Below are positions 9,843-59,173 of a stretch of 64,000 bases of DNA, one piece after another. Each line of letters begins with the position of its first letter. Within the stretch, counting starts at the first letter, position 1. The stretch is from Candidatus Omnitrophota bacterium (GTDB lineage: Bacteria; Omnitrophota; Gorgyraeia; 2-01-FULL-45-10): assembly GCA_028716065.1 (NCBI GenBank), contig JAQUQN010000001.1, forward strand, positions 13,266 through 77,265, read 5' to 3'. Under the pieces are notes generated by a model that worked only from the letters and a program-made list of their open reading frames with translations, was not told the DNA's origin and did not search any database. The position numbers and the translations under genes were made by a program.

Positions 9843-9843
9843 G

Positions 9844-11555: not shown

Positions 11556-11596
11556 GATAGGAAGGTTACTGACGTTTATATTTAGTTAACGAGCGG

Positions 11597-11631: not shown

Positions 11632-11706
11632 GCGCATTTTGAGCTAAGTATTTTCATTCCTAACCTTGACAAAGTCCTCTTTATATGATAAATTCTTTTT
11701 AATAAG

Positions 11707-12180: not shown

Positions 12181-12181
12181 T

Positions 12182-13238: not shown

Positions 13239-13242
13239 AAAA

Positions 13243-14595: not shown

Positions 14596-14601
14596 GCTTT
14601 T

Positions 14602-15153: not shown

Positions 15154-15162
15154 GGCGCTATT

Positions 15163-16173: not shown

Positions 16174-16183
16174 ATTTAAATAG

Positions 16184-16861
16184 ATGATAGAGATCAATCT
16201 GTTACCGGAACAACGCAAGAAGAAGACAAGACAGGCCCAGCTGCCCAAATTGGATTTAGGGCAAATACCTGTTCTGAAGATCATGGCGGGGTTTCTTGTA
16301 ATACTTTTAGTTTTACAGACAGCCTTATTTTTTATCGGTATTTATTGCAGGATCAACCTTACTTCGTTGAACGCCAAATACAAGAAGATCCTGCCTGAGA
16401 AGCAAGAAGCCGATAGATTGAAAGCCATGACCGATTCGATGAGCAAGAAGGTGAAGAGCATCGATGACCTCATGGAGAACCGTCTGGATTGGGCCAGGAA
16501 ATTAAGCGACCTGGATGATTGCCTGACGCCCGGGGTGTGGTTGAGCGCGCTTAGCTATGATGAAGAGGCCGTTGAAAGGCCCATTGCTTCCGGCAGTGTG
16601 GCGATTACCGGTAAGGCAAAGGAAGGTAAGATAAAGACCGAAAGCGCCGTTGTAAGGCGTCTATTATTGTCGGGGTACGCGCTGACCATGGGCGAGGAAG
16701 GTACATCATTAATAGGCAGGTTCATCAAAAGCCTCAAAGATAACAGCGATTTTTATTCAGATTTTGGTAAGATAGAACTCGGATCAATAAAGAGAGACAG
16801 GTTTGACAAACAGGAAGTCATGAATTTCAGGATATTGTGTTTCTTCAAGGAGAATAGATGA
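16184..16861 (+). CDS. pilN: PilN
   Basis: MIEINLLPEQRKKK N-terminus and a single TM helix, typical of PilN. Confidence 0.8.
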   Translation: MIEINLLPEQRKKKTRQAQLPKLDLGQIPVLKIMAGFLVILLVLQTALFFIGIYCRINLTSLNAKYKKILPEKQEADRLKAMTDSMSKKVKSIDDLMENRLDWARKLSDLDDCLTPGVWLSALSYDEEAVERPIASGSVAITGKAKEGKIKTESAVVRRLLLSGYALTMGEEGTSLIGRFIKSLKDNSDFYSDFGKIELGSIKRDRFDKQEVMNFRILCFFKENR

Positions 16862-17451
16862 TAGATATTCTTGAGAGGTTAAATAAGAACAAAAAACAGG
16901 CCATGATATTTTTCATCGCGGCCTTTGTCATAGTCGTCATACTGTATTTTTATATATTGCTCTTGCCGCAAATAATGGCCTTGACGGATATCCTGGGTCA
17001 GACGGGCAAGCGGGTTTTCGAGTTGAAAGAGGCCCAGGCTGCCGTATCCAATATAGATAATCTTAAAAAGGCCGTGAAGGTCTATAATGAAAAGATAGAT
17101 ATTTACGAGAAGAGGCTGCCCGCGGAAAATGAGATCCCGACTTTGCTTGAAAGCCTTTCGATCATGGCAAGGGATTCCAACGTGAAGATAATCGGCATAA
17201 CGCCCGTGACACTTTTCGGTGATCAGAAAAAGCCAAGGGGCCGGATATATCAGGAATTCCCGATCCAGGTAAGCGCCAAGGCGGGATATCATGAGCTGGG
17301 GTGTTTTTTAGGCCGGCTCGAAAATGCGGACCGTTTCATGAAGGTTATAGATATAAATATAAATGCCGACGCCGCTACGCCAAAAAAACATGATGTGGAG
17401 CTTGTAGTCGCTACGTATATATTACTTAAAGAGGCCGGTAAGACGAGATGA
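16858..17451 (+). CDS. pilO: PilO-like protein
   Basis: Position after pilN with a 4-nt overlap. One TM helix, a coiled coil, and an appropriate size. Confidence 0.6.
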   Translation: MIDILERLNKNKKQAMIFFIAAFVIVVILYFYILLLPQIMALTDILGQTGKRVFELKEAQAAVSNIDNLKKAVKVYNEKIDIYEKRLPAENEIPTLLESLSIMARDSNVKIIGITPVTLFGDQKKPRGRIYQEFPIQVSAKAGYHELGCFLGRLENADRFMKVIDININADAATPKKHDVELVVATYILLKEAGKTR

Positions 17452-17834
17452 GGACAAAATATATCTGTTTGATGATAAGCATTTTCACTTTTGTCAGCGT
17501 AAATATACATGCCGGTAAGGCGCCCTTCAAATATGAAGCAAGGGGAAGGCGCGATCCGTTCATTCCCTTGATAAGCACCGACCGGTCGTCGCAGATCTCG
17601 CTGAAAGACGTCGTTTCCGTGGATGAATTAAAACTGGAAGGCATAGCCACTACCGGGTCCGGAGGCAAGAGATTTGCCATCATGAACGGCGAGATGCTCA
17701 AGGAGAATGAAAAGATAGGCAATGTAAAAATCAAACAGATATCCAATGCAGAAGTTCTATTGACGATATCTGAAAAGGAATATATAATCAGTTTACCTAA
17801 AAAAGAGGAGGGTCTGAAGAGTGGGAAAGAATAA
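17448..17834 (+). CDS. pilP: PilP-like lipoprotein
   Basis: Signal peptide, an RRDPF motif (PilP hallmark), and position between pilO and pilQ. Confidence 0.6.
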   Translation: MRTKYICLMISIFTFVSVNIHAGKAPFKYEARGRRDPFIPLISTDRSSQISLKDVVSVDELKLEGIATTGSGGKRFAIMNGEMLKENEKIGNVKIKQISNAEVLLTISEKEYIISLPKKEEGLKSGKE

Positions 17835-19476
17835 ACTTATTAGTTTCGGTTTGTTGTCCGTGGCGCTTTTTGTTTTTACCTCCATGGTTACGTCTTCGGC
17901 AGATGAAGGTCCCGCAACGCCGATGGCGGAAGAGGCCGAAGGAGCGGTTACTGAGCCGGCGGCAGCCGTTGAAGGAGCAGGATCTCAGTCTCCTGCCTCG
18001 GACGCGGAAATCGCCTCCGAAACGAACGAACCGGAAGAGGTTTCCAAATTAGAGCCGGGTTATATCACGGTCAATTTCAAGGGAGCGGATATAAGGACAG
18101 TGCTCGCCTATATAGCCGAGGTCTCCGGGATAGATATAGTTCCGGCGCCTGACGTCAAGGGCGTCGTCGATCTGAAGCTTACAAACAAGCCCTGGAAGGT
18201 GGCCATGGACCTCATAGCCAAAAACTATGGCCTGGCATATGAAAAGGAGGGCGACATAATAAGGGTCGTGACGCTCGACAAGATAAAGCAGGAGGAGCTC
18301 ATTACCCAGGCCTTTACGCTGAACTACGGAAAGGCGAAGGATATAGTCTCTTCGATACAAAATATCGTCAGCGAGAGAGGCAAGGTGATGTATGATGACA
18401 GGACCAACATCCTGCTTGTCACCGATATTCCAACCAACTTATATAAGATAGGCGAGATCATTGGCAAACTTGATAAAAAGACCGATCAGGTCCTCATCGA
18501 GGCCAGGGTAATTGAGACAGTGCTGGGCGAAGATGAAAAACTCGGCATAGACTGGAATATCAAATTCACGGCTACCGGAGCGAAGCGGCCGACCACACTG
18601 CCGTTTGAAGCGTTCAAGACACCTTTCAATACTAAGTCAGGCGAAATGCAGGCGTATTTCCCGCAGGTCCAGGTAGCGGCTCCGACGAGCACGACCGAGA
18701 CCGTTGGAGGCGCCACAGTGTCGACCGAATCGGCGCTATTCCCTTCCTCGGCTACAGGTGTTTTCAGCTTTCCATATGCAGCGGCAAGCGATTTTTCATT
18801 CGGCACTTTGGATTTTTCACAATTTCAGGCCGTTTTGGAAATGATAAAATCAAGGTCTGACACTGATCTCGTTTCCAATCCGAGGATAGCGACCCTGAAT
18901 AATACCGAAGCCTTAATCAACGTGGGGCAGACGATAAACCTGCCGACGTATGAACGGAATTCCACGACCGGTAAGATGGAGATAACCGGGTATGACGCCA
19001 AGGACCTGGGCATAATACTCAAGGTTACCCCGCACATAAACGATTCCGGAGAGATAGTCGTGGATCTCTTCCCGGAAATAAGCGATCTCATAAGATATGA
19101 CACACTGGATGCGGCCTCCGGGATCGTAGCGCCCGTATTCTCCGCAAGGCAGGCAAAGACCCAGGTGATGATAAAGGACGGCGATACGATATTCATAGGC
19201 GGCCTCATAAAAGAGAACAATGTGAACACGAAAAAGAAGATGCCGTTCTTCGGGGATATCCTGGGAGATGTCCCTTACCTGGGGCTCTTATTTACAAAGA
19301 AAGAGATAACAAAACGGAAGACAGAACTGGTATTCTTCATAACCGTCAACCTCATGAAGACGGGGAAAGAGATCAAGACTTCCCCCAAGCCGGAAAAGTC
19401 GTATCAACCCACGTTCGTCGCTACGCAGGAACCGGATAAGACTCCGAAAAAGAGAATGAAGAAGATGATGTTCTGA
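17821..19476 (+). CDS. pilQ: Type IV pilus secretin PilQ
   Basis: Signal peptide, an acidic low-complexity linker, an N0/Secretin_N domain, and a C-terminal secretin domain (NPRIATLNNTEALINVGQ..., GGLIKEN..., PFFGDILGDVPYLGLLF). Confidence 0.85.
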   Translation: MGKNKLISFGLLSVALFVFTSMVTSSADEGPATPMAEEAEGAVTEPAAAVEGAGSQSPASDAEIASETNEPEEVSKLEPGYITVNFKGADIRTVLAYIAEVSGIDIVPAPDVKGVVDLKLTNKPWKVAMDLIAKNYGLAYEKEGDIIRVVTLDKIKQEELITQAFTLNYGKAKDIVSSIQNIVSERGKVMYDDRTNILLVTDIPTNLYKIGEIIGKLDKKTDQVLIEARVIETVLGEDEKLGIDWNIKFTATGAKRPTTLPFEAFKTPFNTKSGEMQAYFPQVQVAAPTSTTETVGGATVSTESALFPSSATGVFSFPYAAASDFSFGTLDFSQFQAVLEMIKSRSDTDLVSNPRIATLNNTEALINVGQTINLPTYERNSTTGKMEITGYDAKDLGIILKVTPHINDSGEIVVDLFPEISDLIRYDTLDAASGIVAPVFSARQAKTQVMIKDGDTIFIGGLIKENNVNTKKKMPFFGDILGDVPYLGLLFTKKEITKRKTELVFFITVNLMKTGKEIKTSPKPEKSYQPTFVATQEPDKTPKKRMKKMMF

Positions 19477-44293: not shown

Positions 44294-45034
44294 ATGTCAG
44301 AAAACATAGAGAGATTACTTAAAGGGGTCAGGGCGGGGCGCCTCTCCACGGACAGGGCGCTCGGCGTATTGAAGGACCTTCCCTATAAAGACCTGGGCTT
44401 CGCGCGGATAGATAACCACAGGGCCTTGCGCCGCGGTTTTCCGGAGGTCATCTTCGGAAAGGGCAAAACTCCCGACCAGATAATAAAGATAGCCAGAAGG
44501 ATCATCTCTAGCGACGGCATACTCCTCATAACCCGCACCGATACAAAGGTCTATTCGCGGCTCAAGAAGATATATCCGAAAATAAAGTTCGACAAGAAAT
44601 CCGGCATCATATACTACAGGACCACGCCGCCTCCGATCAAGACCGGCAAGGTCCTTATCATTACCGCCGGTACCGCGGATCTGCCGGTGGCTGAAGAGGC
44701 GAGGGCCACGCTCGAGATAATGGGCGATCCGGTGGAGATATTGTGTGATGTTGGCGTCGCGGGCCTGCACAGGTTACTGGACAAGATGAAGGCGCTTGGT
44801 GAGGCGGATGTCATAATAGTCATAGCTGGCATGGAAGGGGCCCTGGCGAGCGTCGTCAGCGGCCTGGTGTCCAAGCCCGTCATAGCCGTTCCCACGAGCG
44901 TCGGTTATGGTGCGAGTTTCGGCGGGGTGGCGGCACTCCTTACCATGATGAATTCCTGTTCGCCGGGCGTCTCGGTAGTGAATATCGACAACGGTTTCGG
45001 CGCGGCATATTTCGCGAGCATGATCAATAAATAA
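44294..45034 (+). CDS. larB: LarB (nickel-pincer cofactor biosynthesis carboxylase/hydrolase, PurE-like)
   Basis: PurE-like GKVLIITAGTADLPVAEEA...VIIVIAGMEGALASVV. It directly precedes larC. Confidence 0.7.
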   Translation: MSENIERLLKGVRAGRLSTDRALGVLKDLPYKDLGFARIDNHRALRRGFPEVIFGKGKTPDQIIKIARRIISSDGILLITRTDTKVYSRLKKIYPKIKFDKKSGIIYYRTTPPPIKTGKVLIITAGTADLPVAEEARATLEIMGDPVEILCDVGVAGLHRLLDKMKALGEADVIIVIAGMEGALASVVSGLVSKPVIAVPTSVGYGASFGGVAALLTMMNSCSPGVSVVNIDNGFGAAYFASMINK

Positions 45035-45047
45035 GGTTACCTTTTGT

Positions 45048-46217
45048 ATGCGAATAGCGTATTTCGATTGTATGAGCGGCATAAGCGGGGACATGACCAT
45101 CGCGGCGTTTCTTGATGCCGGATTGAGCATGAAGACGCTTAAGGCGCAACTTGCCAGGCTGAATCTCAAAGGTTATGAAATTAAAGAGAGCAGGACGAAC
45201 AGGGGCTCTATCGATGCGGTAAAATTCGATGTCATCTGTAAAAATGAAAAACACAGCCATAGAAAACTGAAAGATATTTTGAGGCTTATAGATAAAAGCG
45301 CGCTTGATGCGGAGATAAAAAAGACGGCAAAGGATATCTTCAATAATATCGGTAATGCGGAGGCGAAGGTCCACGGCCTATCCAAAAATCAGGAGATAGA
45401 TTTTGACGAGATCGGACAGGTAGATTCCATAATAGATATAGTGGCTGTGGCGATAGCGGTCCATGAGCTGAAGATAGGCGAAGTATATTCCTCGAACATC
45501 ACGTTCGGAAGGTCCTTTACGAAAACGGCCCATGGCAGTCTGCCGATACCCGCCCCGGCGGCCCTGGAACTTCTGAAAGGCGTGCCGGCCAGGATATGCG
45601 AAATCGAGGCCGAACTCGTGACACCCACGGGCGCAGGGATACTCAAGACGCTTGCCAGGGGTTTCGGCGACATGCCGGAACTGAAGATATCGCAGATCGG
45701 TTACGGCGCCGGGACTAGAGTTTTGAAGAACATGCCGAACCTGCTTCGCGTGGTGATAGGTGAAAGGGTTCCTGCCTACATGAAGGACAGGGTAACCGTT
45801 CTGGAAACTAACATAGATGACATGAATCCGCAGAATTTTGAATATCTCTTCGAGAGGCTCTTCAAGGAAGGGGCGCTCGACGTATTCCTGGCCAACATAA
45901 TAATGAAAAAATCCAGGCCAGCGTTTAAGTTGACCGTCCTGGCCGAGCCGGTGTTGGCAGAAAAGATGAAATCGGTGATATTCAGCGAGACCTCGACCAT
46001 CGGGATAAGATATTACGAAGTGAACCGCTCAAAGCTCGAGCGTGAAACCCGTAAGGTCCATACGGGATACGGAGACGTGACCGTTAAATTTTCCTCCGGC
46101 CCCGGCAATTTACGCAATGTCGCTCCTGAGTATGAGGATTGTGTCAGGCTCGCGAAAGCGAAAAAAATACCATTAAAGGTGGTCTATGAAGAAGCTAAGA
46201 AGGCTATTAAAGTTTAG
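45048..46217 (+). CDS. larC: LarC nickel insertase (DUF111)
   Basis: MRIAYFDCMSGISGDMTIAAFLDAGL N-terminal signature, 389 aa. Confidence 0.8.
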   Translation: MRIAYFDCMSGISGDMTIAAFLDAGLSMKTLKAQLARLNLKGYEIKESRTNRGSIDAVKFDVICKNEKHSHRKLKDILRLIDKSALDAEIKKTAKDIFNNIGNAEAKVHGLSKNQEIDFDEIGQVDSIIDIVAVAIAVHELKIGEVYSSNITFGRSFTKTAHGSLPIPAPAALELLKGVPARICEIEAELVTPTGAGILKTLARGFGDMPELKISQIGYGAGTRVLKNMPNLLRVVIGERVPAYMKDRVTVLETNIDDMNPQNFEYLFERLFKEGALDVFLANIIMKKSRPAFKLTVLAEPVLAEKMKSVIFSETSTIGIRYYEVNRSKLERETRKVHTGYGDVTVKFSSGPGNLRNVAPEYEDCVRLAKAKKIPLKVVYEEAKKAIKV

Positions 46218-47839: not shown

Positions 47840-47867
47840 TTGACAATCAAAAAATCTCGGGTATACT
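47840..47867 (+). promoter_or_regulatory. Sigma70-type promoter TTGACA-N16-TATACT upstream of the HTH_17 gene and lipid operon
   Basis: TTGACA 47840-45 and TATACT 47862-67. The flanks resemble the pilA promoter (TTGACAAT...GGTATACTTT). Confidence 0.45.
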
Positions 47868-47979: not shown

Positions 47980-48174
47980 ATGCCCGAAGAAACTCTATTT
48001 ACAGTTGATGAATTGGCCACCTATCTGAGGATGAAGCCTGTTACCATATATAAACACGCTAAAGCAGGCAAACTTCCGGGATTCAAGGTAGGGGCCAACT
48101 GGCGGTTCAAGAAGTCGACTATCGATCGCTGGATCACTGACCAGGAAAAAGAACGAAATCATATCACCAAATAA
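47980..48174 (+). CDS. HTH_17 (excisionase-family) small DNA-binding protein
   Basis: FTVDELATYLRMKPVTIYKHAKAGKLPGFKVGANWRFKKSTIDRWI, 64 aa. Confidence 0.65.
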   Translation: MPEETLFTVDELATYLRMKPVTIYKHAKAGKLPGFKVGANWRFKKSTIDRWITDQEKERNHITK

Positions 48175-48255: not shown

Positions 48256-49509
48256 ATGAATAAGAGAATAGTGATAACGGGTATAGGGGTGCTGGCATCT
48301 AATGGTATAGGTAAGAAGGCCTTCTGGGATGCGCTCAAAAAGGGCCGTTCCGGAATAAAACCGGTAACGTTATTCGATACGGGTAATTTGAGGGCAAAGA
48401 CGGCTGGAGAGATCAGCGATTTTAAACCGGAGGACATATTGGGGCCGAAGGGATTACGGAATCTTGATAGAAGCACGAAGCTCGTTCTCAGCGCCTCAAA
48501 ACTGGCGCTGGACGATGCCGGTATAAAATACCCGCTTTCAGAGGACGAGACGGATCTTTTCGGTGTTTCATTAGGTTCGACCATGGGTTCGGTGTGGTCC
48601 ATAAGCGAATTCGATAAGGAAGCGCTACGCGAGGGGCCGCGCTCGGTCAACCCGGCGCTCTTTCCAAATACCGTGATAAATTCGCCCGCGAGCCATGTAT
48701 CGATAAATTTCAATATACAGGGATTTAACGCGACCATCTCGACGGGCTTCTGTTCGAGCGTCGATGCCATCTATTATGCGATGAACATGCTGGAATTATA
48801 TGAATATGAGGTTGTTCTCACCGGGGGCGTTGAGGAATTATGCGAACAGACCTATAAGGGTTTTCATAAGATAGGACATCTGGCCGGCTCAAGGGACGGC
48901 AAGCAAGAGATCAACTGCCCGTTCGATAAACGGAGGAACGGCATCGTCTTTGGCGAAGGCGCCTGCATAGTCGTATTGGAAAAACTAGAGCATGCGCTCA
49001 AGAGAAAGGCCAGGATTTACGCGGAAGTGCTCGGTTATGGCACATCCTTCGACCCCGATAGCAGGAATATCTATAGCCCCAAAGCAAAAGGAGCCGCGGA
49101 GGCGATAAGGGCATGCCTGGCGGACGCGAAAATAGGCGCGGATGATATCGGCTATATAAGCGCGAGCGCAAATTCGACGCTCGATTGCGACGCGATGGAG
49201 GCGAAAGCAGTGACGGACGTATTCGGTGAAAGAGGCAAAAGCGTGCCGATGAGTTCCGTAAAATCGATGATAGGCGAGTCATTTTCCGCCGGCGGCGCGT
49301 TCAATGTCGCGGCAAGCGTGGGCGTATTGGAGGAGAGCTTCCTGCCGCCTACGATAAATTACGAAAAGAAGGACCGGCGCTGCGACGTCGACTGCGTGCC
49401 GAACAAGGCAAGAGACGCGAAGGTCGATAAGATACTAGTGAATTCCTTCAGCCCGACAGGTGTGAATTCGAGTTTATCAATATCAAAATACAATTATCAG
49501 GATAGCTAA
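48256..49509 (+). CDS. Beta-ketoacyl-ACP synthase homolog lacking both catalytic His residues (chain-length-factor-like KAS partner)
   Basis: KAS fold with the active-site Cys context (ISTGFCSSVDA). The HGTxT motif is replaced by SASANSTLD and the GHxxGAAG motif by GESFSAGG. Confidence 0.75.
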   Translation: MNKRIVITGIGVLASNGIGKKAFWDALKKGRSGIKPVTLFDTGNLRAKTAGEISDFKPEDILGPKGLRNLDRSTKLVLSASKLALDDAGIKYPLSEDETDLFGVSLGSTMGSVWSISEFDKEALREGPRSVNPALFPNTVINSPASHVSINFNIQGFNATISTGFCSSVDAIYYAMNMLELYEYEVVLTGGVEELCEQTYKGFHKIGHLAGSRDGKQEINCPFDKRRNGIVFGEGACIVVLEKLEHALKRKARIYAEVLGYGTSFDPDSRNIYSPKAKGAAEAIRACLADAKIGADDIGYISASANSTLDCDAMEAKAVTDVFGERGKSVPMSSVKSMIGESFSAGGAFNVAASVGVLEESFLPPTINYEKKDRRCDVDCVPNKARDAKVDKILVNSFSPTGVNSSLSISKYNYQDS

Positions 49510-50633
49510 TGATAAATAAAGTAGGTTTTATAGGTCATCCAATAGATCTGGAGCATCTATACAAAATGCTTGGACCATGGGCATTTTTTGCCAGGAAGAT
49601 AGCACCTTATCAACTTAATGCGATGCTTAAAAATATTCCGCCATATAGGCTTGTTTCGGTTAAAAATATACGATCCGCTAAGAACGCATTGATTGACTGC
49701 CACACGATTATCTGCCCTCTCATGCCTACAGCTATGGTAAGCCTTGACGAAGAGTTTGTACTTAAGAAAATAACACAAGCGGTAAAAGTTGCCGAGCGGC
49801 TAGGTGCGAAAATAGTTACGCTTGGCGGTTTCACGTCTGTGGTAGGCAATGAAGGTGAAACGGTTTCTAAACGCGTCGGTGTGCCGATTACAAGCGGTAA
49901 TACTTATACCGCGGCCCTTGCCATTGAAGGCATATTAAAGGCCGCGTATTATATGGAGATAGACCTTGCGCGGGCGACGCTTGCTGTAATAGGCGCCACA
50001 GGAGACATAGGTTCGATATGTACGAAGGTTTTATCCAAAAAGATGCAAAAGCTTAATATCGTTGCTCGGAATGAGGAACGGATGAATGTACTAATGCGGG
50101 AAGTGCAACATGATGGCAGGGTTCAAGTTGAGACATTTAAATATTACAAAGACGCCGTTAAAAACGCTGACATAATACTTGCCGTTACAAGTGCCGTTTC
50201 TACTATAATCGAGCCGGAAAATTTAAAGCCCGGTTCTATCGTCTGCGACGTCGCTATCCCGGCGAATATAGCCAAAGAAGTTGTTAATGTAAGGAATGAT
50301 GTGTTTGTCTTTGAGGGTGGATTGGCGAAACTTCCTTATCAACATGAAATAAAGGACAGGGTTTTTAACGAACTTATGCCCTCTGGAAGTATCTATGGTT
50401 GTCTTGCCGAAGGAATGGTTCTTGCTTTCGATGGAAAGTTCGAAAATTACTCTATCGGGCGCGGAAATATAACAGAAGAGAAAATTAATGAGATATCTAA
50501 AATAGCAAGAAAGCACGGCCTTCATCTTGCGGACTTTTTTTGCGGATATAGATTTTATTCCGAAGATGACATGGAATCAATCAAACGAAATGCAAAAAGG
50601 AATATCTTAAGTGGAAAATTCGTTAAAAGATAA
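49509..50633 (+). CDS. Acyl-ACP reductase (AAR) family homolog (fatty aldehyde-forming)
   Basis: Recalled cyanobacterial AAR blocks match: GFIGHPIDLEHL~GLIGHLTSLEQ; IVTLGGFTSVV~ISALGGFTSII; TSGNTYTAAL~TTGNTHTAYV; LAVIGATGDIGS~VAVVGATGDIGS; catalytic-Cys context IYGCLAEGM~MFACFAEAM; GRGNITEEKINEI~GRNQITIEKMEAI. The start overlaps the KAS1 stop by 1 nt. Confidence 0.65.
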   Translation: MINKVGFIGHPIDLEHLYKMLGPWAFFARKIAPYQLNAMLKNIPPYRLVSVKNIRSAKNALIDCHTIICPLMPTAMVSLDEEFVLKKITQAVKVAERLGAKIVTLGGFTSVVGNEGETVSKRVGVPITSGNTYTAALAIEGILKAAYYMEIDLARATLAVIGATGDIGSICTKVLSKKMQKLNIVARNEERMNVLMREVQHDGRVQVETFKYYKDAVKNADIILAVTSAVSTIIEPENLKPGSIVCDVAIPANIAKEVVNVRNDVFVFEGGLAKLPYQHEIKDRVFNELMPSGSIYGCLAEGMVLAFDGKFENYSIGRGNITEEKINEISKIARKHGLHLADFFCGYRFYSEDDMESIKRNAKRNILSGKFVKR

Positions 50634-51354
50634 AGTAGTGGTTGTTACGGGTGGTTCGCGAGGAATCGGCAGAGCGATCGTCTTTGAATTCATATATAAC
50701 GGAGCAAAGGTTGTCTTTACGTATTTAAAGAGCGATGAAGCCGCCGGTGTAGTTTTAGATGAGATAAAGGAATTAAAAGGAGAGGCAGAAGCTATAAAAT
50801 CCGATTCAAGAGATTTTATTGAGGCAAAAAAGGTCGTAGAAGAAACGGTAAAAAAATTTGGGAGGCTCGACATACTCGTAAATTCCGCCGGTATAATCAA
50901 GGATAAGGCATTAATGATGATGGAGCCTTCGGAATGGCAGGAAGTGATTAATACCAACTTAACGGGTTACTTTAATATGGCAAAGGCCTCGATAGTTACT
51001 ATGATGAAGCAAAAGAGTGGTTCGATAATAAATATATCATCAGTCGCGGGAGTCATCGGGACGGCCAGACAGGTAAATTACGCAAGCGCAAAGGCAGGCA
51101 TTATAGGTTTTACAAAATCGTTAGCCAAAGAGGTGGCTTCTTATAATATACGTGTTAATTCTGTAGCACCAGGATATATCGAAACAGACATGACAAAAGA
51201 TTTAAAGCAGAAAGAAAGCTTGCTTAAGATTATACCAGTTGCCCGTTTTGGCACACCTCAGGAAGTGGCGAAAGTGGTAGCCTTCTTAGCCAGCGAAAAG
51301 GCAAATTACATTACCGGTCAGGTAATAAAAGTAGATGGGGGATTAGCAATTTAA
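50611..51354 (+). CDS. fabG: 3-oxoacyl-ACP reductase (SDR)
   Basis: TGGSRGIG cofactor motif, NSAG, and a YxxxK catalytic dyad (YASAKAG). Confidence 0.85.
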   Translation: MENSLKDKVVVVTGGSRGIGRAIVFEFIYNGAKVVFTYLKSDEAAGVVLDEIKELKGEAEAIKSDSRDFIEAKKVVEETVKKFGRLDILVNSAGIIKDKALMMMEPSEWQEVINTNLTGYFNMAKASIVTMMKQKSGSIINISSVAGVIGTARQVNYASAKAGIIGFTKSLAKEVASYNIRVNSVAPGYIETDMTKDLKQKESLLKIIPVARFGTPQEVAKVVAFLASEKANYITGQVIKVDGGLAI

Positions 51355-51369
51355 AAATAGGAGTTATAT

Positions 51370-51624
51370 ATGCCAGAGATTAATTCGCAGAATTTGGAAC
51401 AAGAATTAAGATCGCTCATAGCCAGTATTGTCGAGATAGATGAGAAGAAGATTACACCGGAAGCAAAGTTTATCGAAGACCTGGGAATGGATTCGATGAT
51501 GGCGCTTGAAATATTAGCATCGGTGGAGAAAAAATATAAGATAAGAATACCGGAAGAAAATTTAGCAAAAATGACAAATTTAAATAAAGTTGCTGACCTC
51601 GTGAAAGGATTTTTATCAAAATGA
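51370..51624 (+). CDS. acpP: Acyl carrier protein
   Basis: DLGMDSMMALE phosphopantetheine-attachment motif, 84 aa. Confidence 0.85.
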   Translation: MPEINSQNLEQELRSLIASIVEIDEKKITPEAKFIEDLGMDSMMALEILASVEKKYKIRIPEENLAKMTNLNKVADLVKGFLSK

Positions 51625-52835
51625 AAAGGCGTGTTGTCGTGACAGGATTAGGCGCTGTAACGTCAATAGGAATCGGCAAAGATGAATTTTGGAAGAATCT
51701 TATAGCCGGAAAATCAGGGATAGGTAACGTTACCACATTTAATACATCTGATTATCCAATTAATAAAGGCGGCGAGGTCAAAAATTTTAAACCAACGGAT
51801 TTTATTTCCAAAAATAAGTTAAAAGATATGGCCAGGGCGTCTCAATTTGCTGTTGCTGCGGCAAAAATGGCACTGGAAGATGCGAAATTGAGTATAAATG
51901 AGATAAGGGAACAGAAAACCGGAACTATAATTGGGACAACAATGGCAGATATCCAATCTCTCGAGCAGATTGATAAATACTGGACTAAAAACGGCGAAGA
52001 TGAAGTTTGGCCTATAAATGTTATTAAATATCCAGGTAATGAGTTATCAGAAAATATAGGCTATTTTTTTGATATAAGCGGACCTAATTATACGATACCA
52101 ACTGCATGTTCAGCTGGTAATTACTCTATTGCATATGCATTTGATCTTATTCGTGAAAATAGATCGCATATTATGATTGCAGGAGGTACGGATCCATTTT
52201 CTAGAATTACGTTTACTGGATTTAATCGTCTTTATGCTATGGCGCCGGAAAAGTGCCAACCATTTGATAAAAATAGAAAAGGAATGATGATAGGAGAGGG
52301 TTCTGGTATTTTGATTTTAGAAGAATTGGAAGCTGCTAAAAAAAGAAAGGCAAATATTTATTGTGAGATATTAGGATATGGGTTGAGTTGCGATGCTTAC
52401 AATATGACAATTCCGCGAGTCGAAGGAGTTGTCAAAGTCATGGAAAAAGCAATAAAGAATAGTGGAGTTGCTAAGGAGGACATAGATTATATTAGCGCCC
52501 ATGGAACCGGCACTCCGGCAAATGATAAGACAGAATGTGAAGCTATAAAAAAAGTATTTGGCAATTTAAGCAAAGACTTATCAGTTAGTTCGATAAAATC
52601 GATGCTTGGTCATACTATGGGTGCCGCAAGCGCATTAGAGGCGATAACATGTTGTCTTGCCATTCAAAATTCAACTATGCCCCCAACTATTAACTACGAG
52701 ACACCCGATCCAGACTGTGATTTGGATATTACTCCTAATAATGCCAAGAAAAAGATGCTTAAAGTAGTTTTAAACAATTCTTTTGCTTTTGGTGGAAATA
52801 ATGCATGTGTGGTGTTAGGAAGGTATAGAAATTAA
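51621..52835 (+). CDS. fabF: Beta-ketoacyl-ACP synthase II (complete Cys-His-His triad)
   Basis: TACSAG (Cys), SAHGTGTPANDK (His) and GHTMGAASA (His). Confidence 0.85.
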   Translation: MKRRVVVTGLGAVTSIGIGKDEFWKNLIAGKSGIGNVTTFNTSDYPINKGGEVKNFKPTDFISKNKLKDMARASQFAVAAAKMALEDAKLSINEIREQKTGTIIGTTMADIQSLEQIDKYWTKNGEDEVWPINVIKYPGNELSENIGYFFDISGPNYTIPTACSAGNYSIAYAFDLIRENRSHIMIAGGTDPFSRITFTGFNRLYAMAPEKCQPFDKNRKGMMIGEGSGILILEELEAAKKRKANIYCEILGYGLSCDAYNMTIPRVEGVVKVMEKAIKNSGVAKEDIDYISAHGTGTPANDKTECEAIKKVFGNLSKDLSVSSIKSMLGHTMGAASALEAITCCLAIQNSTMPPTINYETPDPDCDLDITPNNAKKKMLKVVLNNSFAFGGNNACVVLGRYRN

Positions 52836-52840
52836 AAAAT

Positions 52841-53431
52841 ATGAGCACAGAATCTTTATTATTAAATTTAATAAAATCAAGAAGGACGATTAGGAAATAT
52901 AAAAAGCTGGATGTTAAAGATGACTTGATTAATAAAATATTAGAAGCAGCTAGATGGGCGCCGTCGGCGCATAATATACAACCTTGGAAATTTGTTGTTG
53001 TGAAAGATACGAGAGTAATTAATGAAATATATGAGATTATGATGAAAAAGGAAAAACAGTTGTTGGCTGGATTCAATATAGTTTTAAAGGAAACTGCCAA
53101 GTGTTTAATAAACTGTAAATGTGTAATTGTAGCTTATACAGATGGTAGCATATTAAGAAAATTCAATAGATTAGAAGAGCCATATGCGTCTATCGGAAGA
53201 ATATATGAAATTCAATCGGTGTCTTTTGCAATAGATAATATAATGTTGTATGTACATGCCTTAGGCTTAGGCACAGCATGTTTGGGAATGGCTCTATTTT
53301 GCGAAAAAGAAATCAACAAATTACTTAAACAGAAGGGTAATCTTATAGCTCTTTTATCGTTAGGTTTTCCCGATGAGACGCCTGCTGCTAGAGCACGAAA
53401 GTCTTTATTACAAGTTAGCCAAACAATATGA
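52841..53431 (+). CDS. Nitroreductase-family flavoprotein
   Basis: RRTIRKYKK...AARWAPSAHNIQPWKFVVV motif. Confidence 0.75.
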   Translation: MSTESLLLNLIKSRRTIRKYKKLDVKDDLINKILEAARWAPSAHNIQPWKFVVVKDTRVINEIYEIMMKKEKQLLAGFNIVLKETAKCLINCKCVIVAYTDGSILRKFNRLEEPYASIGRIYEIQSVSFAIDNIMLYVHALGLGTACLGMALFCEKEINKLLKQKGNLIALLSLGFPDETPAARARKSLLQVSQTI

Positions 53432-54879
53432 AAATAAGCACTAAATACGATGTGATTATTATAGGTAGTGGGATAGGGGGACTTGTTAGTGGATGCTATT
53501 TGGCAAGGGCCGGCATGAAAGTTCTAGTTGCAGAACAACACGTTAGTCCAGGAGGCTATTGTAGTTCATTTAAAAGAAGAGGATTTACTTTTGATTCGAG
53601 CATTCATTATATAAAATTTAGCGAGAAGGAAAGTTTGCTTGCCAGGATAATAGAAGATTTTAAAATAGAAAAACACATTAGATTTTATAATCTTAATCAA
53701 TCAGATTTAATTATTACACCAGCTGGCCAGTTTTATATTAATAGTGACATATCAAAAACAATAGCCAATTTAATAGATATTTTTCCTAGTGAAGAAAAGG
53801 GAATAAAGGACTTCTTTGATTTTTTGAATACAAAAAATATAGCGTTTTTATATTCTAGAACGAGAAACAGAACATTATTTGATTTGATGAAAATATATTT
53901 CAAGAATAAGGAATTGATAGCAATATTTAATTGTCTTTTAATGAATATAGGTTTGCCTATAGATAGGGTTGATGCACTAAAGGCGTATTTCTTTTTCAAG
54001 GAATTTTTCTTTAATCAAAGTTATTATCCAAGAGGTGGTATGCAAAAATTTGCAGATACATTAGCCTCTGTGTTAATAGGTTACGGGGGAGAAATAATGT
54101 ATTCTAATAGAGTTGATAAAATAATAACGAAAAATAATAAAAGTAACGGCGTGATAATTGACAAAATGAAGATTCGGTCGAATTATGTAATTAGCAATGC
54201 AGATCCTCATAACACATTCATAGAGTTAGTAGGTAAAAACAAAATATCAAAAAAATTATTGAATCGAATAAAGCGCTTAATTCCATCTATGTCCGCATTT
54301 ATTGTATATATAGGGCTAGATAGTAGTGTTAAATCGAATTATTCTATAAATAATAGTATATGGTATTTCCCATCCTCAAACTTTAACAGAACCTATGATG
54401 CGATAAGAAATGGAAAGCCAATAATAAAAGATGATTACTTAATATGCTCGTTTCCATCTTCCTATGATAAAAATCTAGCACCTAGCGGAGGCGTTTCAGT
54501 TGCCATATTTTCTGGCGCCACATTTAATACAAAAAAATATTGGGAAAACCACAGAAGAAAATTTGAAGAAAATATTATAAGGAGAGCCAGAGCCATATTT
54601 CCATGTATCTCCGAACATGTAAAAGTTTTATTATCAGCTACACCCTTTACGCTTTATAGATATACACATAATCTTAAGGGAGCTTGCTATGGGCTTGCTT
54701 CTTTAAGAACACAGATGCGCAAGACTTTTATGCCACAACAGACAGAAATAGAAAATCTTTTTATGGCTGGACATTGGACTACGCATGGAATAGGTCAAGG
54801 TGGGCTATCAATGGCAGCATTTTCTGGAGTTTCCGCCGCCAAGCGTATAATTAAACTAAAACCAGAAGGTAGATTATGA
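53428..54879 (+). CDS. FAD-dependent oxidoreductase, phytoene-desaturase (CrtI/CrtD)-like
   Basis: N-terminal dinucleotide-binding motif DVIIIGSGIGGLVSGCYLARAG...GGYCSS and a CrtI-family length of 483 aa. Confidence 0.75.
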   Translation: MKISTKYDVIIIGSGIGGLVSGCYLARAGMKVLVAEQHVSPGGYCSSFKRRGFTFDSSIHYIKFSEKESLLARIIEDFKIEKHIRFYNLNQSDLIITPAGQFYINSDISKTIANLIDIFPSEEKGIKDFFDFLNTKNIAFLYSRTRNRTLFDLMKIYFKNKELIAIFNCLLMNIGLPIDRVDALKAYFFFKEFFFNQSYYPRGGMQKFADTLASVLIGYGGEIMYSNRVDKIITKNNKSNGVIIDKMKIRSNYVISNADPHNTFIELVGKNKISKKLLNRIKRLIPSMSAFIVYIGLDSSVKSNYSINNSIWYFPSSNFNRTYDAIRNGKPIIKDDYLICSFPSSYDKNLAPSGGVSVAIFSGATFNTKKYWENHRRKFEENIIRRARAIFPCISEHVKVLLSATPFTLYRYTHNLKGACYGLASLRTQMRKTFMPQQTEIENLFMAGHWTTHGIGQGGLSMAAFSGVSAAKRIIKLKPEGRL

Positions 54880-57008
54880 CAATTTACGCATTATCTTCCT
54901 TTTCAGCATCTTTTCTTTTATATTTTCTAGCGCTTTTTGTTTATTTGAATAATAAAAAAAGATTTTTAAATCAAATTTATGCTGTTCAGGCAGTTATAAT
55001 AGGATCTTGGATATTTGGATGCTTTGGGGAAAGCGTTATAAATAACTATCAGTTTATAACCATTTGGGATAAAGCGCTAAATATTTTTGCGATATTTTCT
55101 CCACCCTTATTTTTGCATACTTATTATGCCATTCTAGGAGAAAGGGCCACTAAGCCAGTAAAATTTCTATATGCGCTATCAGTCATTTTACTATTTTTAA
55201 GTTTTAATCCTTTGTATATTAAGAGTGTTGAGTATCGATATGGTGTTAGATTTATTTCTAATCCTGGTCCGCTTTATAGCATTTTTATATTTGCTGTTTT
55301 ATTCGCTTTTTCAATTAGCTTCTATAAAATTTTTAATGCATTAAAGAATGCAGATAGTCAGAAAAAAACACAGCTTAACTATGTAATAATTGCAACAGCA
55401 AGTATGTTTATTGCGGCAGTTATATATTTAGCAATGGTTTTAAATGTAGCAATATCACCTCTTGATAATACTTTAAACTCTATATATGGGCTTCTTATTG
55501 CCTATGCCATTGTTCGTCATCAGTTGATGGATATTTCAGTAATCATAAAAAAGACCCTCGTCTTTGCGGGGCTTTTGGCTTCTGTCTTTGCAATACTGAT
55601 TTTACCTACCTTGATTATACAAGAATACTTGTTAAGAGGAGCAGGGTTTAAGGGTAGGATGATAGGCCTTACCATAAGCGGTATAATAATAATATTAACC
55701 ATGCGCAGGATCGAGAACTTTCTCATTAATATAACCGACAAATACCTCTTCCAGAAGAAATACGATTATAAGGAACTGCTCAAGACATTCACAGCAGAAG
55801 TATTAACAGTTCTAAACCTTGACAGGTTGGTGGACCTTACAATAGACAAATTATCGGATATAATCAAACTAATCTCTGCGGCAGTATTGTTATTCGATGA
55901 TGATAAACAGGAATTTAAGATAGCCGCCTCCCAAGGCATAAAAGACCCATCGCTGACGCTGATAAGGCCTGACGGCATAGTGACATTCTTAGAACAGACA
56001 CATGGTTATTTATTGAGGAAGGAATTGGTTGAAAAGAAGATATTTATACCGGATACCATAAAAGATATCATGGATAAGTTGAATGCAGAGCTCATCATAC
56101 CGATGGTGCTCCACGAAGAAGTAATAGGTGTCTTATCCCTGGGCAAGAAAAAATCAGATGAAGATTACTCTCAGGATGATTTAGATATATTACTGCCCCT
56201 GGCCAGAACCCTTGCCATCGCTATCTCGAACGCAAAACTATTCGCCGAACTCGGTAAGACTCAAGCCGAAGCTGCCCAGAGAGAGAAGATGGCGGTCATA
56301 GGGACGCTCTCGGCAGGGATAAATCACGAAATATGTAATCCGCTGGGAATAGCAAGGGGGCAGTGTGAAGCGTTCTTGTTGAATATTAAGGACGGGCTCT
56401 ATAAAGACAAGAGCCAGGAGGACCTGTTAAAAAAGGCGCAGGAGATCATGACGAAGGTCATCAAGGAGACGGACAGGGCTACGGCCATAACGAAGAAACT
56501 CTCCGGTTTTGCCAAACCCGCTAAGGGTGAAGCTGAAATGATCAATATAGATAAAGAGGTGGACGAAGTTTTGGGCCTCGTCGGTTATGAATTAAAACTG
56601 GAAAAGATAGAGGTTGAGAAACGTATCGAACAAGGCCTCCCGAGCATCTTTGTTGACAGGAAACAACTTCAGGAGGTACTGTTCAATCTCATAAGGAACG
56701 CAGGACAGGCGATAGGCGAGAAAGGCAAGATCACGGTTATAGCTAAGCAGGAGAAGAATACGATATCGATAGACATTAAAGATACGGGCTCGGGTATTCC
56801 GCAGGAGAAGATAAGAGAGTTATTCAACCCTTTCTTTACTACTAAAGAGCCGGGCAAGGGGACGGGGCTCGGGCTCTTCATAGTCCGCCAGGTCGTTGAA
56901 AAGAACGGCGGCCGTATCTATCTTAAAGAGACGAAGGTCGGCGAAGGGACGACGTTCACGCTTGAATTTCCGGCGTCCGTTTCTCAGGAAGCGAGGGTCA
57001 GGGCATGA
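54876..57008 (+). CDS. Sensor histidine kinase with a multi-TM N-terminal sensor and a GAF domain
   Basis: About 7 N-terminal TM helices, a GAF domain, HisKA (GINHEICNPL), and HATPase_c (GSGIPQE...GTGLGL). Confidence 0.8.
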   Translation: MTIYALSSFSASFLLYFLALFVYLNNKKRFLNQIYAVQAVIIGSWIFGCFGESVINNYQFITIWDKALNIFAIFSPPLFLHTYYAILGERATKPVKFLYALSVILLFLSFNPLYIKSVEYRYGVRFISNPGPLYSIFIFAVLFAFSISFYKIFNALKNADSQKKTQLNYVIIATASMFIAAVIYLAMVLNVAISPLDNTLNSIYGLLIAYAIVRHQLMDISVIIKKTLVFAGLLASVFAILILPTLIIQEYLLRGAGFKGRMIGLTISGIIIILTMRRIENFLINITDKYLFQKKYDYKELLKTFTAEVLTVLNLDRLVDLTIDKLSDIIKLISAAVLLFDDDKQEFKIAASQGIKDPSLTLIRPDGIVTFLEQTHGYLLRKELVEKKIFIPDTIKDIMDKLNAELIIPMVLHEEVIGVLSLGKKKSDEDYSQDDLDILLPLARTLAIAISNAKLFAELGKTQAEAAQREKMAVIGTLSAGINHEICNPLGIARGQCEAFLLNIKDGLYKDKSQEDLLKKAQEIMTKVIKETDRATAITKKLSGFAKPAKGEAEMINIDKEVDEVLGLVGYELKLEKIEVEKRIEQGLPSIFVDRKQLQEVLFNLIRNAGQAIGEKGKITVIAKQEKNTISIDIKDTGSGIPQEKIRELFNPFFTTKEPGKGTGLGLFIVRQVVEKNGGRIYLKETKVGEGTTFTLEFPASVSQEARVRA

Positions 57009-57376
57009 ATAAACCGCGGATCATAGCTATAGACGATGAAGCCGAGTTCATAGACATGCTGAAGAATTATTTCGCGCCGAGAGGCTATGATATCGAAGTG
57101 GCCCTGCGCGGAGCGAGCGGCATAGAACTGGTGAAGGATAAGAAACCCGACGTCGTCCTGATGGACCTGAAGATGCCGGGGATAGACGGGGACGAGGTAT
57201 TGAAGCTGCTTAAATCGATGCAGCCGTCGTCGAAGATAATATTCATAACAGCTTACGATGATGGAGGAAAGACTAAGGAGCGCCTTTTAAAGACGGGCGC
57301 TTACGCGTGTTTCGATAAACCGCTCTCATCGCTGCGTGAGCTTGAGGAGACGATCTTGCGCGCAGCCAACGAATAG
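57005..57376 (+). CDS. Single-domain response regulator (CheY-like receiver)
   Basis: IIAIDDE...DLKMPGIDG receiver motifs, 123 aa. Confidence 0.8.
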   Translation: MNKPRIIAIDDEAEFIDMLKNYFAPRGYDIEVALRGASGIELVKDKKPDVVLMDLKMPGIDGDEVLKLLKSMQPSSKIIFITAYDDGGKTKERLLKTGAYACFDKPLSSLRELEETILRAANE

Positions 57377-57378
57377 AG

Positions 57379-57786
57379 GTGGTATGTATGCCAAAACTCT
57401 TGGTTGTTGATGATGAACATGATATCTGTGATTTTGTAAAAAATTTCTTTCAGGAGAGAGGTTTCGAAGTATTCACGGCTTCGAACGGAGATGAGGCATT
57501 GGCCATGGTCAAAGAGGATAAGCCGGACATAGTCCTCCTGGATGTAAAGATGAAGGGCATGGACGGTATCGCGGCCCTGAAGCATATTAAGGACATAGAC
57601 AGGTCATTGAAGGTGATAATGGTGACCGCTCTCGAAGACCAGGATAAGATGGTGGAGGCGTCGAAACTGGGAGCGTGTGATTATATCACGAAGCCGCTCG
57701 TCCTGGACCATCTGGAGCAGACAGTAGATAAGAGGTTAAAAGAGATGCCTGATCAGGGATTAAAGGGAGAATTCAGTGAGCGCTGA
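57379..57786 (+). CDS. Single-domain response regulator (CheY-like receiver), second copy
   Basis: LLVVDDEHD...DVKMKGMDG receiver motifs, 135 aa. Confidence 0.8.
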   Translation: MVCMPKLLVVDDEHDICDFVKNFFQERGFEVFTASNGDEALAMVKEDKPDIVLLDVKMKGMDGIAALKHIKDIDRSLKVIMVTALEDQDKMVEASKLGACDYITKPLVLDHLEQTVDKRLKEMPDQGLKGEFSER

Positions 57787-59173
57787 TAAGAAAGCACCAA
57801 GCTGGGACCAGCTGCATACATGGTTCGTCGACAGGTTGTCGCACCATCCTCATGGTTCGGCCGCTGCGGGCCAGAAAGATGGTTCAGCTCCAGCGCCAGA
57901 CGGTAAGGAACGGTCAGAGCCAAGGCTGGATTATCAGTCATTTCTCGAGCGTGCGTCCAGGACCATGATCCGTTTCAAGAAGCCGGAGCATCTCATAAAG
58001 ATGATAGTCCGGACCATCGACGAACAGCTCAAGGTGACCCATACGGCGGTATTATTATTCAAAGAAGAGAAGCAATCCTTCATATTGATCGATTCGAAGG
58101 GTAGCGAAGGGAAGAAGATACCCGTCGGATTCATAAAATTAACTACGGACAACCCTTTAATAGCCGCGTTCAGCGAAAGACGTTCCTACCTCATATCGGA
58201 TACCGGTATCGTTAATTATCGCGACATAATCGAGAGCTTAAAAAACAGGGATATCTTGGAACGTCAGCCCGATCTCTATGATAGATTGATTGCCATCAAG
58301 AAGCAGATGGATCTGATAAAGGCGAACCTTTGCATTCCGTGCTACTTTAAGAGGGACCTGCTTGGCATATTGGTATTGGGTGAAAAGATATCCGGAGAGC
58401 CGTTCAGCAGGGAAGAGATGGGATTCTTCGTAACGCTGGCCAATGACGCAGCCATGGCGATAGCAAATGCGCTACTCATCGATAACCTTCAGCAGAAGAT
58501 AGAGGAGATAAAGGAACTTTTCATAAAGGAGCACAGGATATTCATACATACCTCCATAGCGCTCGCCGCTGCCATCGATGCCAGGGATCCCTACACACAC
58601 GGCCATACCGAACGTGTCACGAATTTCTGCCTAGCCATAGCGAGAGAGCTGGAAGGCGTGCCCGAAGTATCCAATTATCCTAATTTCAGGGAGACGCTGC
58701 AGATAGCCGCGCTTCTTCATGATATAGGTAAGATCGGTATTCCCGATCATATATTGAATAAGCACGGCCGGCTCACGCCGGAAGAGTTCGAAGAGATAAA
58801 GAAACATTCCGTAATAGGAGCGACTATCCTGTATCCGATCAAGGAGCTGGGAGACGTGGCAAGGGAGGTCCGTTATCACCAGGAATGTTTCGATGGTTCC
58901 GGCTATCCGGATGGCCTTAAAGGTACCGACATACCTTTGGTAGCCAGGATAATAGCCGTGGCTGACGCTTTCGATGCCATGACCACCAATAGGCCCTACC
59001 GCAAGAAGAAGACGATAGAAGACGCTATACAGGAGTTAAAACGCTGTTCCGGAACACAGTTCGACCCTTTAATAGTGAGCGCATTCCTTCTGGCCTACGA
59101 AAAGGGCAGCATCCTCAACGGTGTCAATAGAGCCATTAACGGTTCTACTAATGGTAATGGTATAAAGAAGTAG
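57776..59173 (+). CDS. GAF-HD-GYP c-di-GMP phosphodiesterase (second in the window)
   Basis: GAF domain plus HD (ALLHDIGKIGIPD) and GYP (GSGYPDG). GTG start overlapping the upstream RR gene. Confidence 0.8.
   Translation: MSADKKAPSWDQLHTWFVDRLSHHPHGSAAAGQKDGSAPAPDGKERSEPRLDYQSFLERASRTMIRFKKPEHLIKMIVRTIDEQLKVTHTAVLLFKEEKQSFILIDSKGSEGKKIPVGFIKLTTDNPLIAAFSERRSYLISDTGIVNYRDIIESLKNRDILERQPDLYDRLIAIKKQMDLIKANLCIPCYFKRDLLGILVLGEKISGEPFSREEMGFFVTLANDAAMAIANALLIDNLQQKIEEIKELFIKEHRIFIHTSIALAAAIDARDPYTHGHTERVTNFCLAIARELEGVPEVSNYPNFRETLQIAALLHDIGKIGIPDHILNKHGRLTPEEFEEIKKHSVIGATILYPIKELGDVAREVRYHQECFDGSGYPDGLKGTDIPLVARIIAVADAFDAMTTNRPYRKKKTIEDAIQELKRCSGTQFDPLIVSAFLLAYEKGSILNGVNRAINGSTNGNGIKK

Follow-up and report, generated by a model that had tools for sequence, protein, structure and literature searches.

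A triad-less FabF-like protein of Omnitrophota as the probable chain-length-factor-like subunit of a heterodimeric ketosynthase

In the present work we analysed the open reading frame (ORF) at 48256-49509 on the forward strand of a 64,000-nucleotide stretch of DNA from a Candidatus Omnitrophota bacterium (GenBank contig JAQUQN010000001.1, positions 13,266 to 77,265), hereafter called the window. The ORF encodes a protein of 417 aa that is related to FabF, a beta-ketoacyl-acyl carrier protein (ACP) synthase, and has lost all three residues of the catalytic triad; we refer to it as the dead ketosynthase (KS). By analogy with the amxFabFmut/amxFabF2 pair of anammox bacteria, it is very probably an inactive, chain-length-factor (CLF)-like subunit of a heterodimeric KS, the partner of which is encoded four genes downstream, at 51621-52835. 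As far as can be judged from sequence, the protein agrees with the amxFabFmut type in all defining features that are open to test.

The dead KS matches both Pfam domains of the two-domain beta-ketoacyl synthases (PF00109, 9e-38, and PF02801, 2e-26; residues 3-370) and scores 359 bits against the NCBIfam fabF model, which is under the cut-off of 494 bits. It is a FabF-like two-domain protein of the thiolase fold and aligns over its full length with FabFs and with chain C of the PDB entry 9s5h. The catalytic columns were read from gap-free HMMER and MAFFT alignments, in which the FabF of T. thermophilus (1j3n), the window's own KS and the chains of 9s5h served as references. The nucleophile column is occupied by Phe165 (TTC, nt 48748-48750), with TGFCSS in the dead KS against TACATG or TACSAG. 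A preliminary description of this DNA had taken the catalytic Cys to be retained and to distinguish the protein from canonical CLFs; the residue in question, Cys166 (48751-48753, motif GFCSS), is located at +1 from the nucleophile position, and a 'retained Cys' may, when judged by eye, result from such a shift by one position. That description had also regarded both catalytic His residues as replaced, and here it was right: the strings SASANSTLD and GESFSAGG are both present, and the alignments place Ser304 (nt 49165-49167) in the first His column (His1) and Glu341 (nt 49276-49278) in the second (His2). Its proviso that the His residues might be present but shifted is answered by the same gap-free alignments to FabF, which put Ser and Glu in the two His columns themselves. 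The active-site Lys is retained as Lys336, and the two tunnel residues, Phe136 and Val140, correspond to Phe135 and Val139 of amxFabFmut. For the downstream KS (404 aa), a complete Cys-His-His triad had been described, and it was found by alignment as Cys163, His294 and His331, together with Lys326 and the gate residue Phe390; this protein is an active KS of the amxFabF2 type, with which the dead KS is predicted to pair.

The replacements are shared by the close relatives of the protein. Among 120 Omnitrophota homologues that are 71-79% identical to the dead KS, 119 have Phe in the nucleophile column and 115 have Cys at +1; the Lys is kept in 119, the His1 column contains Ser, Thr, Ala, Gly or Cys, and His2 is replaced by Glu in 94 and by Asp in 26. 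Because the same replacements run through the 120 homologues, the loss of the triad is considered to be real, complete and conserved, far beyond chance. Such triad-less ORFs should not be annotated as beta-ketoacyl-ACP synthase II. At the +1 position, Cys also occurs in about 10 other clusters made at 50% identity, and Thr occurs in anammox amxFabFmut.

The frequency of this +1 Cys, in the homologues as well as in the other clusters, could mean that the dead KS is a stand-alone enzyme with new chemistry, for example an acyltransferase or a catalyst of non-decarboxylative coupling, acting through Cys166 and/or Glu341. A similar idea was first proposed for Kuste3606 by Rattray et al. in 2009, and such an enzyme would be compatible with the very strong constraint on the protein and with the acidic His2 column and the Lys, which hardly vary throughout the triad-less clade. 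However, every anammox-type sequence examined has Thr at +1, many other members of the family have Thr, Ser or Ala, and canonical KSs have small residues (Ala, Ser or Thr) at this position, so that a Cys fits a packing role. In addition, both His residues, for decarboxylation and the oxyanion, are lost, and amxFabFmut alone displays no activity and no reaction with mechanism-based probes (10.64898/2026.05.19.726425). We consider a stand-alone enzyme unlikely.

The dead KS is 100% identical to an NCBI protein of a Candidatus Omnitrophica metagenome-assembled genome (MAG). It shares 71-79% identity, along 97-100% of its length, with more than 120 clusters made at 90% identity, and all the named ones are from Omnitrophica/Omnitrophota. 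With an alignment that had the Brocadia dead subunit at its head, we scanned one genome each for 185,579 species. The highest matches were Brocadiales proteins, at 62-94% identity, and the next best ones, at 46-51%, were from Omnitrophota; the same tier includes a few MAGs labelled Planctomycetales or Thermodesulfovibrionales, labels which may be unreliable. In this set of genomes, the nearest non-anammox relatives of amxFabFmut are the Omnitrophota proteins.

We built a distance-based neighbour-joining (NJ) tree, with the FabF of T. thermophilus as the reference, from the cluster KSs, 85 of them dead and 68 active. Dead and active KSs were separated in 200 of 200 bootstrap replicates; the dead subunits of anammox bacteria formed a clade in 200/200, and the non-anammox dead subunits did so in 157/200. 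Since the tree separates dead from active KSs, the duplication and inactivation are older than the split between the anammox and Omnitrophota proteins. The preliminary description had allowed that the protein might group with ordinary FabB/FabF; instead, it falls with amxFabFmut, apart from the KSs and from T. thermophilus FabF. The residues equivalent to Phe136 and Val140 are invariant in all 85 dead KSs, anammox and non-anammox, and the column of the Val is Pro in 66 of the 69 cluster KSs and FabF. A library of representatives at 50% identity contains more than 60 clusters of standalone triad-less KS-like proteins with the Lys and Glu signature, and also about 40 natural fusions of roughly 750-870 aa (e.g. 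P0121, P0125, P0129 and P0131), whose N-terminal part is a KS with Cys-His-His and whose C-terminal domain is KS-like and triad-less. In an NJ tree of these representatives, one clade of 100 domains (bootstrap 69) comprises 100 of the 101 triad-less ones, fused and standalone, and zero with Cys-His-His; the inner nodes of this tree are unsupported and only the monophyly of the triad-less domains is usable.

In a comparison with the four closest loci, the dead KS was 73-78% identical, the active KS 63-70% and the flanking housekeeping proteins 47-64%, and between Omnitrophota relatives the dead KS is the most conserved enzyme of the cluster; the phytoene-desaturase-like protein encoded at the position of the anammox 'PDH' (see below) is only 26-37% identical. 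Since the tunnel residues do not vary and no other enzyme of the cluster is as conserved as the dead KS, a constrained structural role is indicated rather than decay. The loss of all three catalytic residues might in itself be expected of a decaying, functionless paralogue, but the ORF is full length, the more than 120 clusters keep 71-79% identity over nearly the entire protein, and the dead KS is more conserved than the housekeeping genes that flank it; this conservation effectively refutes decay.

We compared the proteins of the cluster with all solved structures. The best match of the dead KS was 9s5h_C (E 2.8e-115, 389 bits), with 260 bits for the best ordinary FabF (1j3n) and 153 bits for the actinorhodin CLF (1tqy_B), and the best match of the downstream KS was 9s5h_B (E 2.1e-155, 520 bits), followed by the ishigamide KS 6kxd_A (351 bits). 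The two window KSs thus have as their closest solved structures two KS chains of one heteromeric entry. Directly before the active KS gene lies a gene for a dedicated ACP of 84 aa (51370-51624, forward strand; PF00550; phosphopantetheine Ser42 in GMDSMM), the three best solved relatives of which are 7qv0_D, 7auf_A and 9s5i_E, the last being the chain that represents the ACP in the Brocadia heterodimer entry. The reconstructed chain C of 9s5h is 94% identical to Brocadia genomic loci, and the Brocadia dead subunit has Val, Asn, Lys and Glu at the nucleophile, His1, Lys and His2 positions, respectively. Because the chains match both window KSs and the ACP, and chain C is 94% identical to Brocadia, we infer that 9s5h and 9s5i are the Brocadia fulgida amxFabF2/amxFabFmut heterodimer of a recent preprint (10.64898/2026.05.19.726425). 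Between the window and B. pituitae, identity is 48% for the two dead KSs, 54% for the two active KSs, 43% for the ACPs and 32% for the PDH proteins, and the cross-comparisons of dead with active KS give 34-36%. The dead KS is accordingly 48% identical to amxFabFmut versus 34-38% to KSs and FabF.

In that preprint, Granatino et al. studied the KS pair of the anammox 'Cluster I' (KustE3603-3608). Each of amxFabFmut and amxFabF2 was inactive singly, the two co-purified, and activity was observed only if they were co-expressed; the pair decarboxylated malonyl-ACP, which is the priming reaction, and gave acetoacetyl-ACP. The heterodimer's crystal structure was solved, and Phe135 and Val139 of amxFabFmut were found to affect the chain-length preference, C6-C8 being preferred over C16. 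The cluster was called unique to ladderane producers and the KS pair the first chain-length factor of a fatty-acid pathway (10.64898/2026.05.19.726425).

The genes from 48256 to 57008 abut or overlap and all lie on one strand, the forward strand. The dead KS gene is followed by a gene for an acyl-ACP (thioester) reductase-like protein of 374 aa (49509-50633), which is related to the cyanobacterial AAR and the N-terminal domain of PigE and in which the catalytic Cys298 is aligned, and then by a FabG-type 3-oxoacyl-ACP reductase gene (50611-51354; TIGR01830 299.5 bits, cut-off 297.75; Pfam adh_short), the ACP gene and the active KS gene (51621-52835). Downstream of these are a nitroreductase-family flavoprotein of 196 aa (52841-53431; PF00881, 2e-29), which occupies a variable 'tailoring' slot, and a phytoene-desaturase/CrtI-family flavoprotein of 483 aa (53428-54879; PF01593, with TIGR02734 below the cut-off), which is at the position of the anammox 'PDH'. 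No FabZ gene is present between the ACP and KS genes in the window, and no enoyl reductase, FabD or FabH gene was found in the cluster or elsewhere in the 64-kb window. A homologue of the B12-radical-SAM gene is likewise lacking from the 64 kb, the sole radical SAM gene (1609-3366), 46 kb away, belonging to the PF19864 type and lacking a B12 domain.

Genes for HTH_17, the dead KS, FabG, ACP and the active KS are kept in 8/8 window-type Omnitrophota loci, while the PDH-like gene was found in 6/8, FabZ in 5/8 and the nitroreductase in 3/8 of the related loci, and the AAR-like reductase in only some related clusters. In the anammox loci the order ACP-FabZ-KS-deadKS-PDH-B12 radical SAM was observed in 56/56. 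The B12-radical-SAM gene is next to PDH in all of the 48 evaluable anammox loci and in none of the 5 evaluable window-type Omnitrophota loci. As the radical SAM gene is lacking and, in the window, FabZ too, the window cluster is not a ladderane cluster. Omnitrophota, on the other hand, conserve the core of KS pair and ACP, mostly together with FabZ and a PDH-like gene, against the preprint's 'unique to ladderane producers'.

The slot after KS/PDH holds different genes in different relatives: a LuxD-like acyltransferase fused to a methyltransferase (L005, 15546-17231), a WbuX-like PP-loop amidotransferase (L002, 13930-15009), or a ferredoxin and a third KS-like gene (L007, 15338-17490). This variable slot suggests lineage-specific release or tailoring chemistry. 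L045, labelled Thermodesulfobacteriota, has its genes in the order seen in anammox bacteria, and the identity to the Brocadia protein is 65%; it is therefore probably a mis-binned Scalindua contig. Loci from several 'uncultured Planctomycetales' third-party annotation (TPA) MAGs have the split arrangement of Omnitrophota described below. L080 and L083, labelled Thermodesulfovibrionales, contain dead KS-FabZ-KS-ACP(-PDH); either the core cluster is also present in Nitrospirota, or these contigs are mis-binned.

A dead KS next to a complete KS had been interpreted in the preliminary description as the KS/CLF architecture of type II polyketide synthase (PKS) and aryl-polyene (APE) clusters. What stands of this is the architecture, since a triad-less partner and a complete KS are encoded together in a single operon-like cluster and the nearest characterised relatives of the two are the amxFabFmut/amxFabF2 heterodimer; membership in a type II PKS or APE cluster does not stand. 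The preliminary description had also proposed a non-decarboxylating partner that might handle an unusual starter; the anammox heterodimer, for its part, carries out priming through decarboxylation of malonyl-ACP. Aromatic CLFs have Gln at the nucleophile position, and the KS-beta gene adjoins the KS-alpha gene and is usually translationally coupled to it, while APE clusters contain accessory genes for aryl starter activation, a second KS, a thioesterase and LolA/MMPL-type export. The window cluster does follow the same logic, with a dead and an active KS, a ketoreductase, a dehydratase in some versions, an ACP and no enoyl reductase; the second-best solved relative of the active KS is the polyene KS Iga11 (6kxd_A, 351 bits); and FabG has a sub-threshold match to the flexirubin short-chain dehydrogenase/reductase FlxB, with further sub-threshold matches to the cispentacin proteins AmcF and AmcB. 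But the dead KS is closer to FabF than to the actinorhodin CLF (260 versus 153 bits), Iga12 and any APE CLF are outside its 60 best solved relatives, its nucleophile position is occupied by Phe165 instead of Gln, and the proteins nearest to it genome-wide are those of anammox Cluster I. Furthermore, AAR-like, FabG and ACP genes stand between the two KS genes, and Pfam and NCBIfam scans of the cluster genes detected none of the accessory genes of APE or aromatic PKS clusters (cyclases, aryl starter enzymes, LolA/MMPL export). A bona fide CLF (KS-beta) of such a cluster is thus very unlikely, and the lineage of the dead KS appears to be derived from FabF separately from the type II PKS and APE CLFs.

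Several points weigh against the reading of the dead KS as the subunit of a heterodimer. The heterodimer and the activity confined to the pair were demonstrated for Kuenenia and Brocadia proteins only; the in vitro reaction of the anammox pair was priming to acetoacetyl-ACP only, and elongation was not seen; and amxFabFmut of Scalindua crystallised as a homodimer, from which it is clear that homodimers can exist (10.64898/2026.05.19.726425). The codes 9s5h and 9s5i were not found in the main text of the preprint, and their identification is the one argued above. Our trees cover the cluster KSs but not Kuste2805 and Kuste3348, and the dead KS may be orthologous either to Kuste3606 or to Kuste2805. 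The two KS genes of the window are not adjacent, with the AAR-like, FabG and ACP genes between them, unlike in the anammox and type II PKS clusters. Finally, many other Omnitrophota loci (L063-L077, L079, L081 and L084) contain dead KS-FabG-FabZ only, without an active KS or ACP within 9 kb, and a partner KS of these split loci must therefore be located elsewhere. The dead KSs of the split loci have the signature Phe-Thr-Asn-Lys-Glu and are 52-57% identical to the window protein. One split locus with annotated flanks, L064 (8992-11426), has riboflavin genes on one side and a phosphoesterase-family gene followed by ligA on the other.

The Scalindua crystals and the split loci might be explained if the dead KS were a homodimeric, non-catalytic protein, ACP-binding or regulatory, that is independent of the downstream KS. 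The retention of the active KS in the cluster in all window-type loci and the existence of natural fusions of a KS with a dead KS speak for a functional partnership instead, and we regard an independent homodimer as decidedly unlikely.

Taking the heterodimeric KS as the preferred explanation, we infer from the anammox pair that the same pairing and activity, the order of steps and the kind of product may apply in Omnitrophota. By homology, the dead KS and the downstream KS would each be inactive alone; together they would share one active site, located in the active KS, with the dead subunit forming part of the acyl tunnel. The pair would prime by decarboxylation of malonyl-ACP and elongate on the cluster's own ACP, short to medium chains being preferred, and FabG and a FabZ, either cluster-encoded or housekeeping, would process the beta-keto group. 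Because no enoyl reductase is encoded, the chain would probably be left unsaturated. The CrtI-like flavoprotein and the nitroreductase-like protein might then modify the chain, and the AAR/PigE-like reductase would probably release it reductively as an aldehyde; in some relatives the LuxD-like acyltransferase may take this place.

After the dead KS gene, the base composition of the cluster changes. The GC content at third codon positions (GC3) is 0.60 in the dead KS gene and 0.60-0.70 in the flanking genes, and after the dead KS gene it is 0.38 in the AAR-like gene, 0.39 in FabG, 0.38 in ACP, 0.28 in KS, 0.27 in the nitroreductase and 0.25 in the PDH-like gene. The low-GC3 stretch covers about 49500-56000; GC is lowest (0.29) in the seven-transmembrane (7TM) part of the downstream kinase gene and is at background again in its C-terminal part. 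An assembly chimera, as a sharp GC3 drop might indicate, is unlikely, because an independent Logan contig matches 48090-56876 with 100% identity, spanning both junctions, and because the same gradient recurs in three unrelated assemblies of relatives (L005, L006 and L086). The drop may be due either to exchange of the 3' module among Omnitrophota or to selection on codon usage.

Directly upstream of the dead KS gene is a small ORF of 64 aa on the same strand (47980-48174), which belongs to the HTH_17 (excisionase/MerR-like) type. A homologue of 62-66 aa is found at the same position in L002-L007, L078, L085 and L086, and it is 70-80% identical in 4 of the 5 compared and 39% in L086; this gene may encode a cluster-specific regulator. 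The best sigma-70-like promoter match in front of it on the forward strand (47840-47867, TTGACA-16-TATACT, 11/12) amounts to no more than agreement with the consensus, and sites of the promoter type are not more numerous in the region than expected from shuffling. At the downstream end, also on the forward strand, are genes for a 7TM-GAF histidine kinase (54876-57008), two single-domain response regulators (57005-57376 and 57379-57786) and an HD-GYP-type protein (57776-59173), which are tied to the cluster by conserved neighbourhood only: the kinase follows the cluster in 6/8 window-type loci, and response regulators and an HD-domain gene are then annotated in L002, L004, L005 and L006. They may form a circuit that senses the state of the membrane and is linked to the cluster.

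The remaining genes of the window are housekeeping ones, encoding pilus proteins, RNase G, Obg, ProB/ProA, ArgRS, Mfd, GatA/GatB and LarB/LarC. The LarB-like (AIRC) and LarC-like (Ni_insertion) genes for synthesis of the nickel-pincer cofactor (44294-46217) lie just upstream of the cluster and are syntenic in L005. A type IV pilus/type II secretion block (4839-19476) contains three T2SSE ATPases, two of them with MshEN, as well as PilC-like, PilM and PilO proteins and a secretin, and several ORFs in this block (11707-15153) have no Pfam match. An Rfam scan of the window gave no matches.

With regard to its wider meaning, the Omnitrophota cluster may be a radical-SAM-less sister of anammox Cluster I, although we put this forward tentatively and with some doubt. 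An older, multi-phylum module, consisting of the heterodimeric KS with its special ACP, FabZ and the CrtI-like protein, would then make a short or medium unsaturated chain, here released as an aldehyde, and anammox bacteria would have added the B12-radical-SAM step for ladderanes to this module. If so, the cluster being unique to ladderane producers would be contradicted, the ladderane-specific step would be identified, and an uncharacterised lipid would be widespread in an uncultured phylum. In any case, the Omnitrophota cluster without the B12-radical-SAM gene offers a natural comparison to part the generic from the ladderane-specific steps, and an uncharacterised, strongly conserved lipid pathway is flagged in a phylum without a pure culture.

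Among known systems, the actinorhodin KS-beta (1tqy_B), Iga12 and the ApeO-ApeC pair share with the proposed pair the principle that an inactive KS paralogue, obligately dimerised with an active KS, gives the acyl tunnel its shape, but the actinorhodin, ishigamide and APE clusters differ from the window cluster in gene content. On the level of genome surveys, 'ladderane'-type biosynthetic gene clusters called by antiSMASH were already listed, and found to be expressed, in Omnitrophota, Desulfobacterota, Verrucomicrobiota and others (Geller-McGrath et al. 2023, PMC9902471), and another antiSMASH survey also listed such clusters without interpreting them (PMC11968836). These surveys include no gene-level analysis, link to a heterodimer or product. 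Triad-less FabF paralogues of Kuenenia stuttgartiensis were tabulated in 2009 (Rattray et al., PMC2649909), and the second of them, Kuste2805, has like the dead KS of the window a Phe at the nucleophile position, the Lys (Lys328) and a Glu at the His333 position, with Asn at position 300; it is, however, listed beside acpS (Kuste2802) and a B12-radical-SAM gene (Kuste2803) and not with a KS/ACP/PDH set (PMC2649909).

The closest counterpart is amxFabFmut of anammox Cluster I. The hosts differ, being Omnitrophota for the window and Brocadiales for amxFabFmut, and so do some residues, the nucleophile column being Phe in the window and Val or Thr in anammox, and His1 being Ser in the window and Asn or Cys in anammox. 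The gene order is also different, as the dead KS gene comes first in the window, with three genes before the KS gene. FabZ is encoded in anammox Cluster I and in many Omnitrophota versions but not in the window's cluster, and in the window-type loci, compared with anammox Cluster I, FabG is constant and the AAR-like reductase, the nitroreductase, the WbuX-like protein and the LuxD-like acyltransferase are variable. Nevertheless, anammox Cluster I and the window cluster both encode a partner KS with an intact triad, a dedicated ACP of the same type and a CrtI-like protein, and amxFabFmut and the dead KS of the window are both derived from FabF, have lost all three triad residues with the Lys kept and His2 replaced by Glu, conserve both tunnel residues and belong to one clade apart from all KSs.

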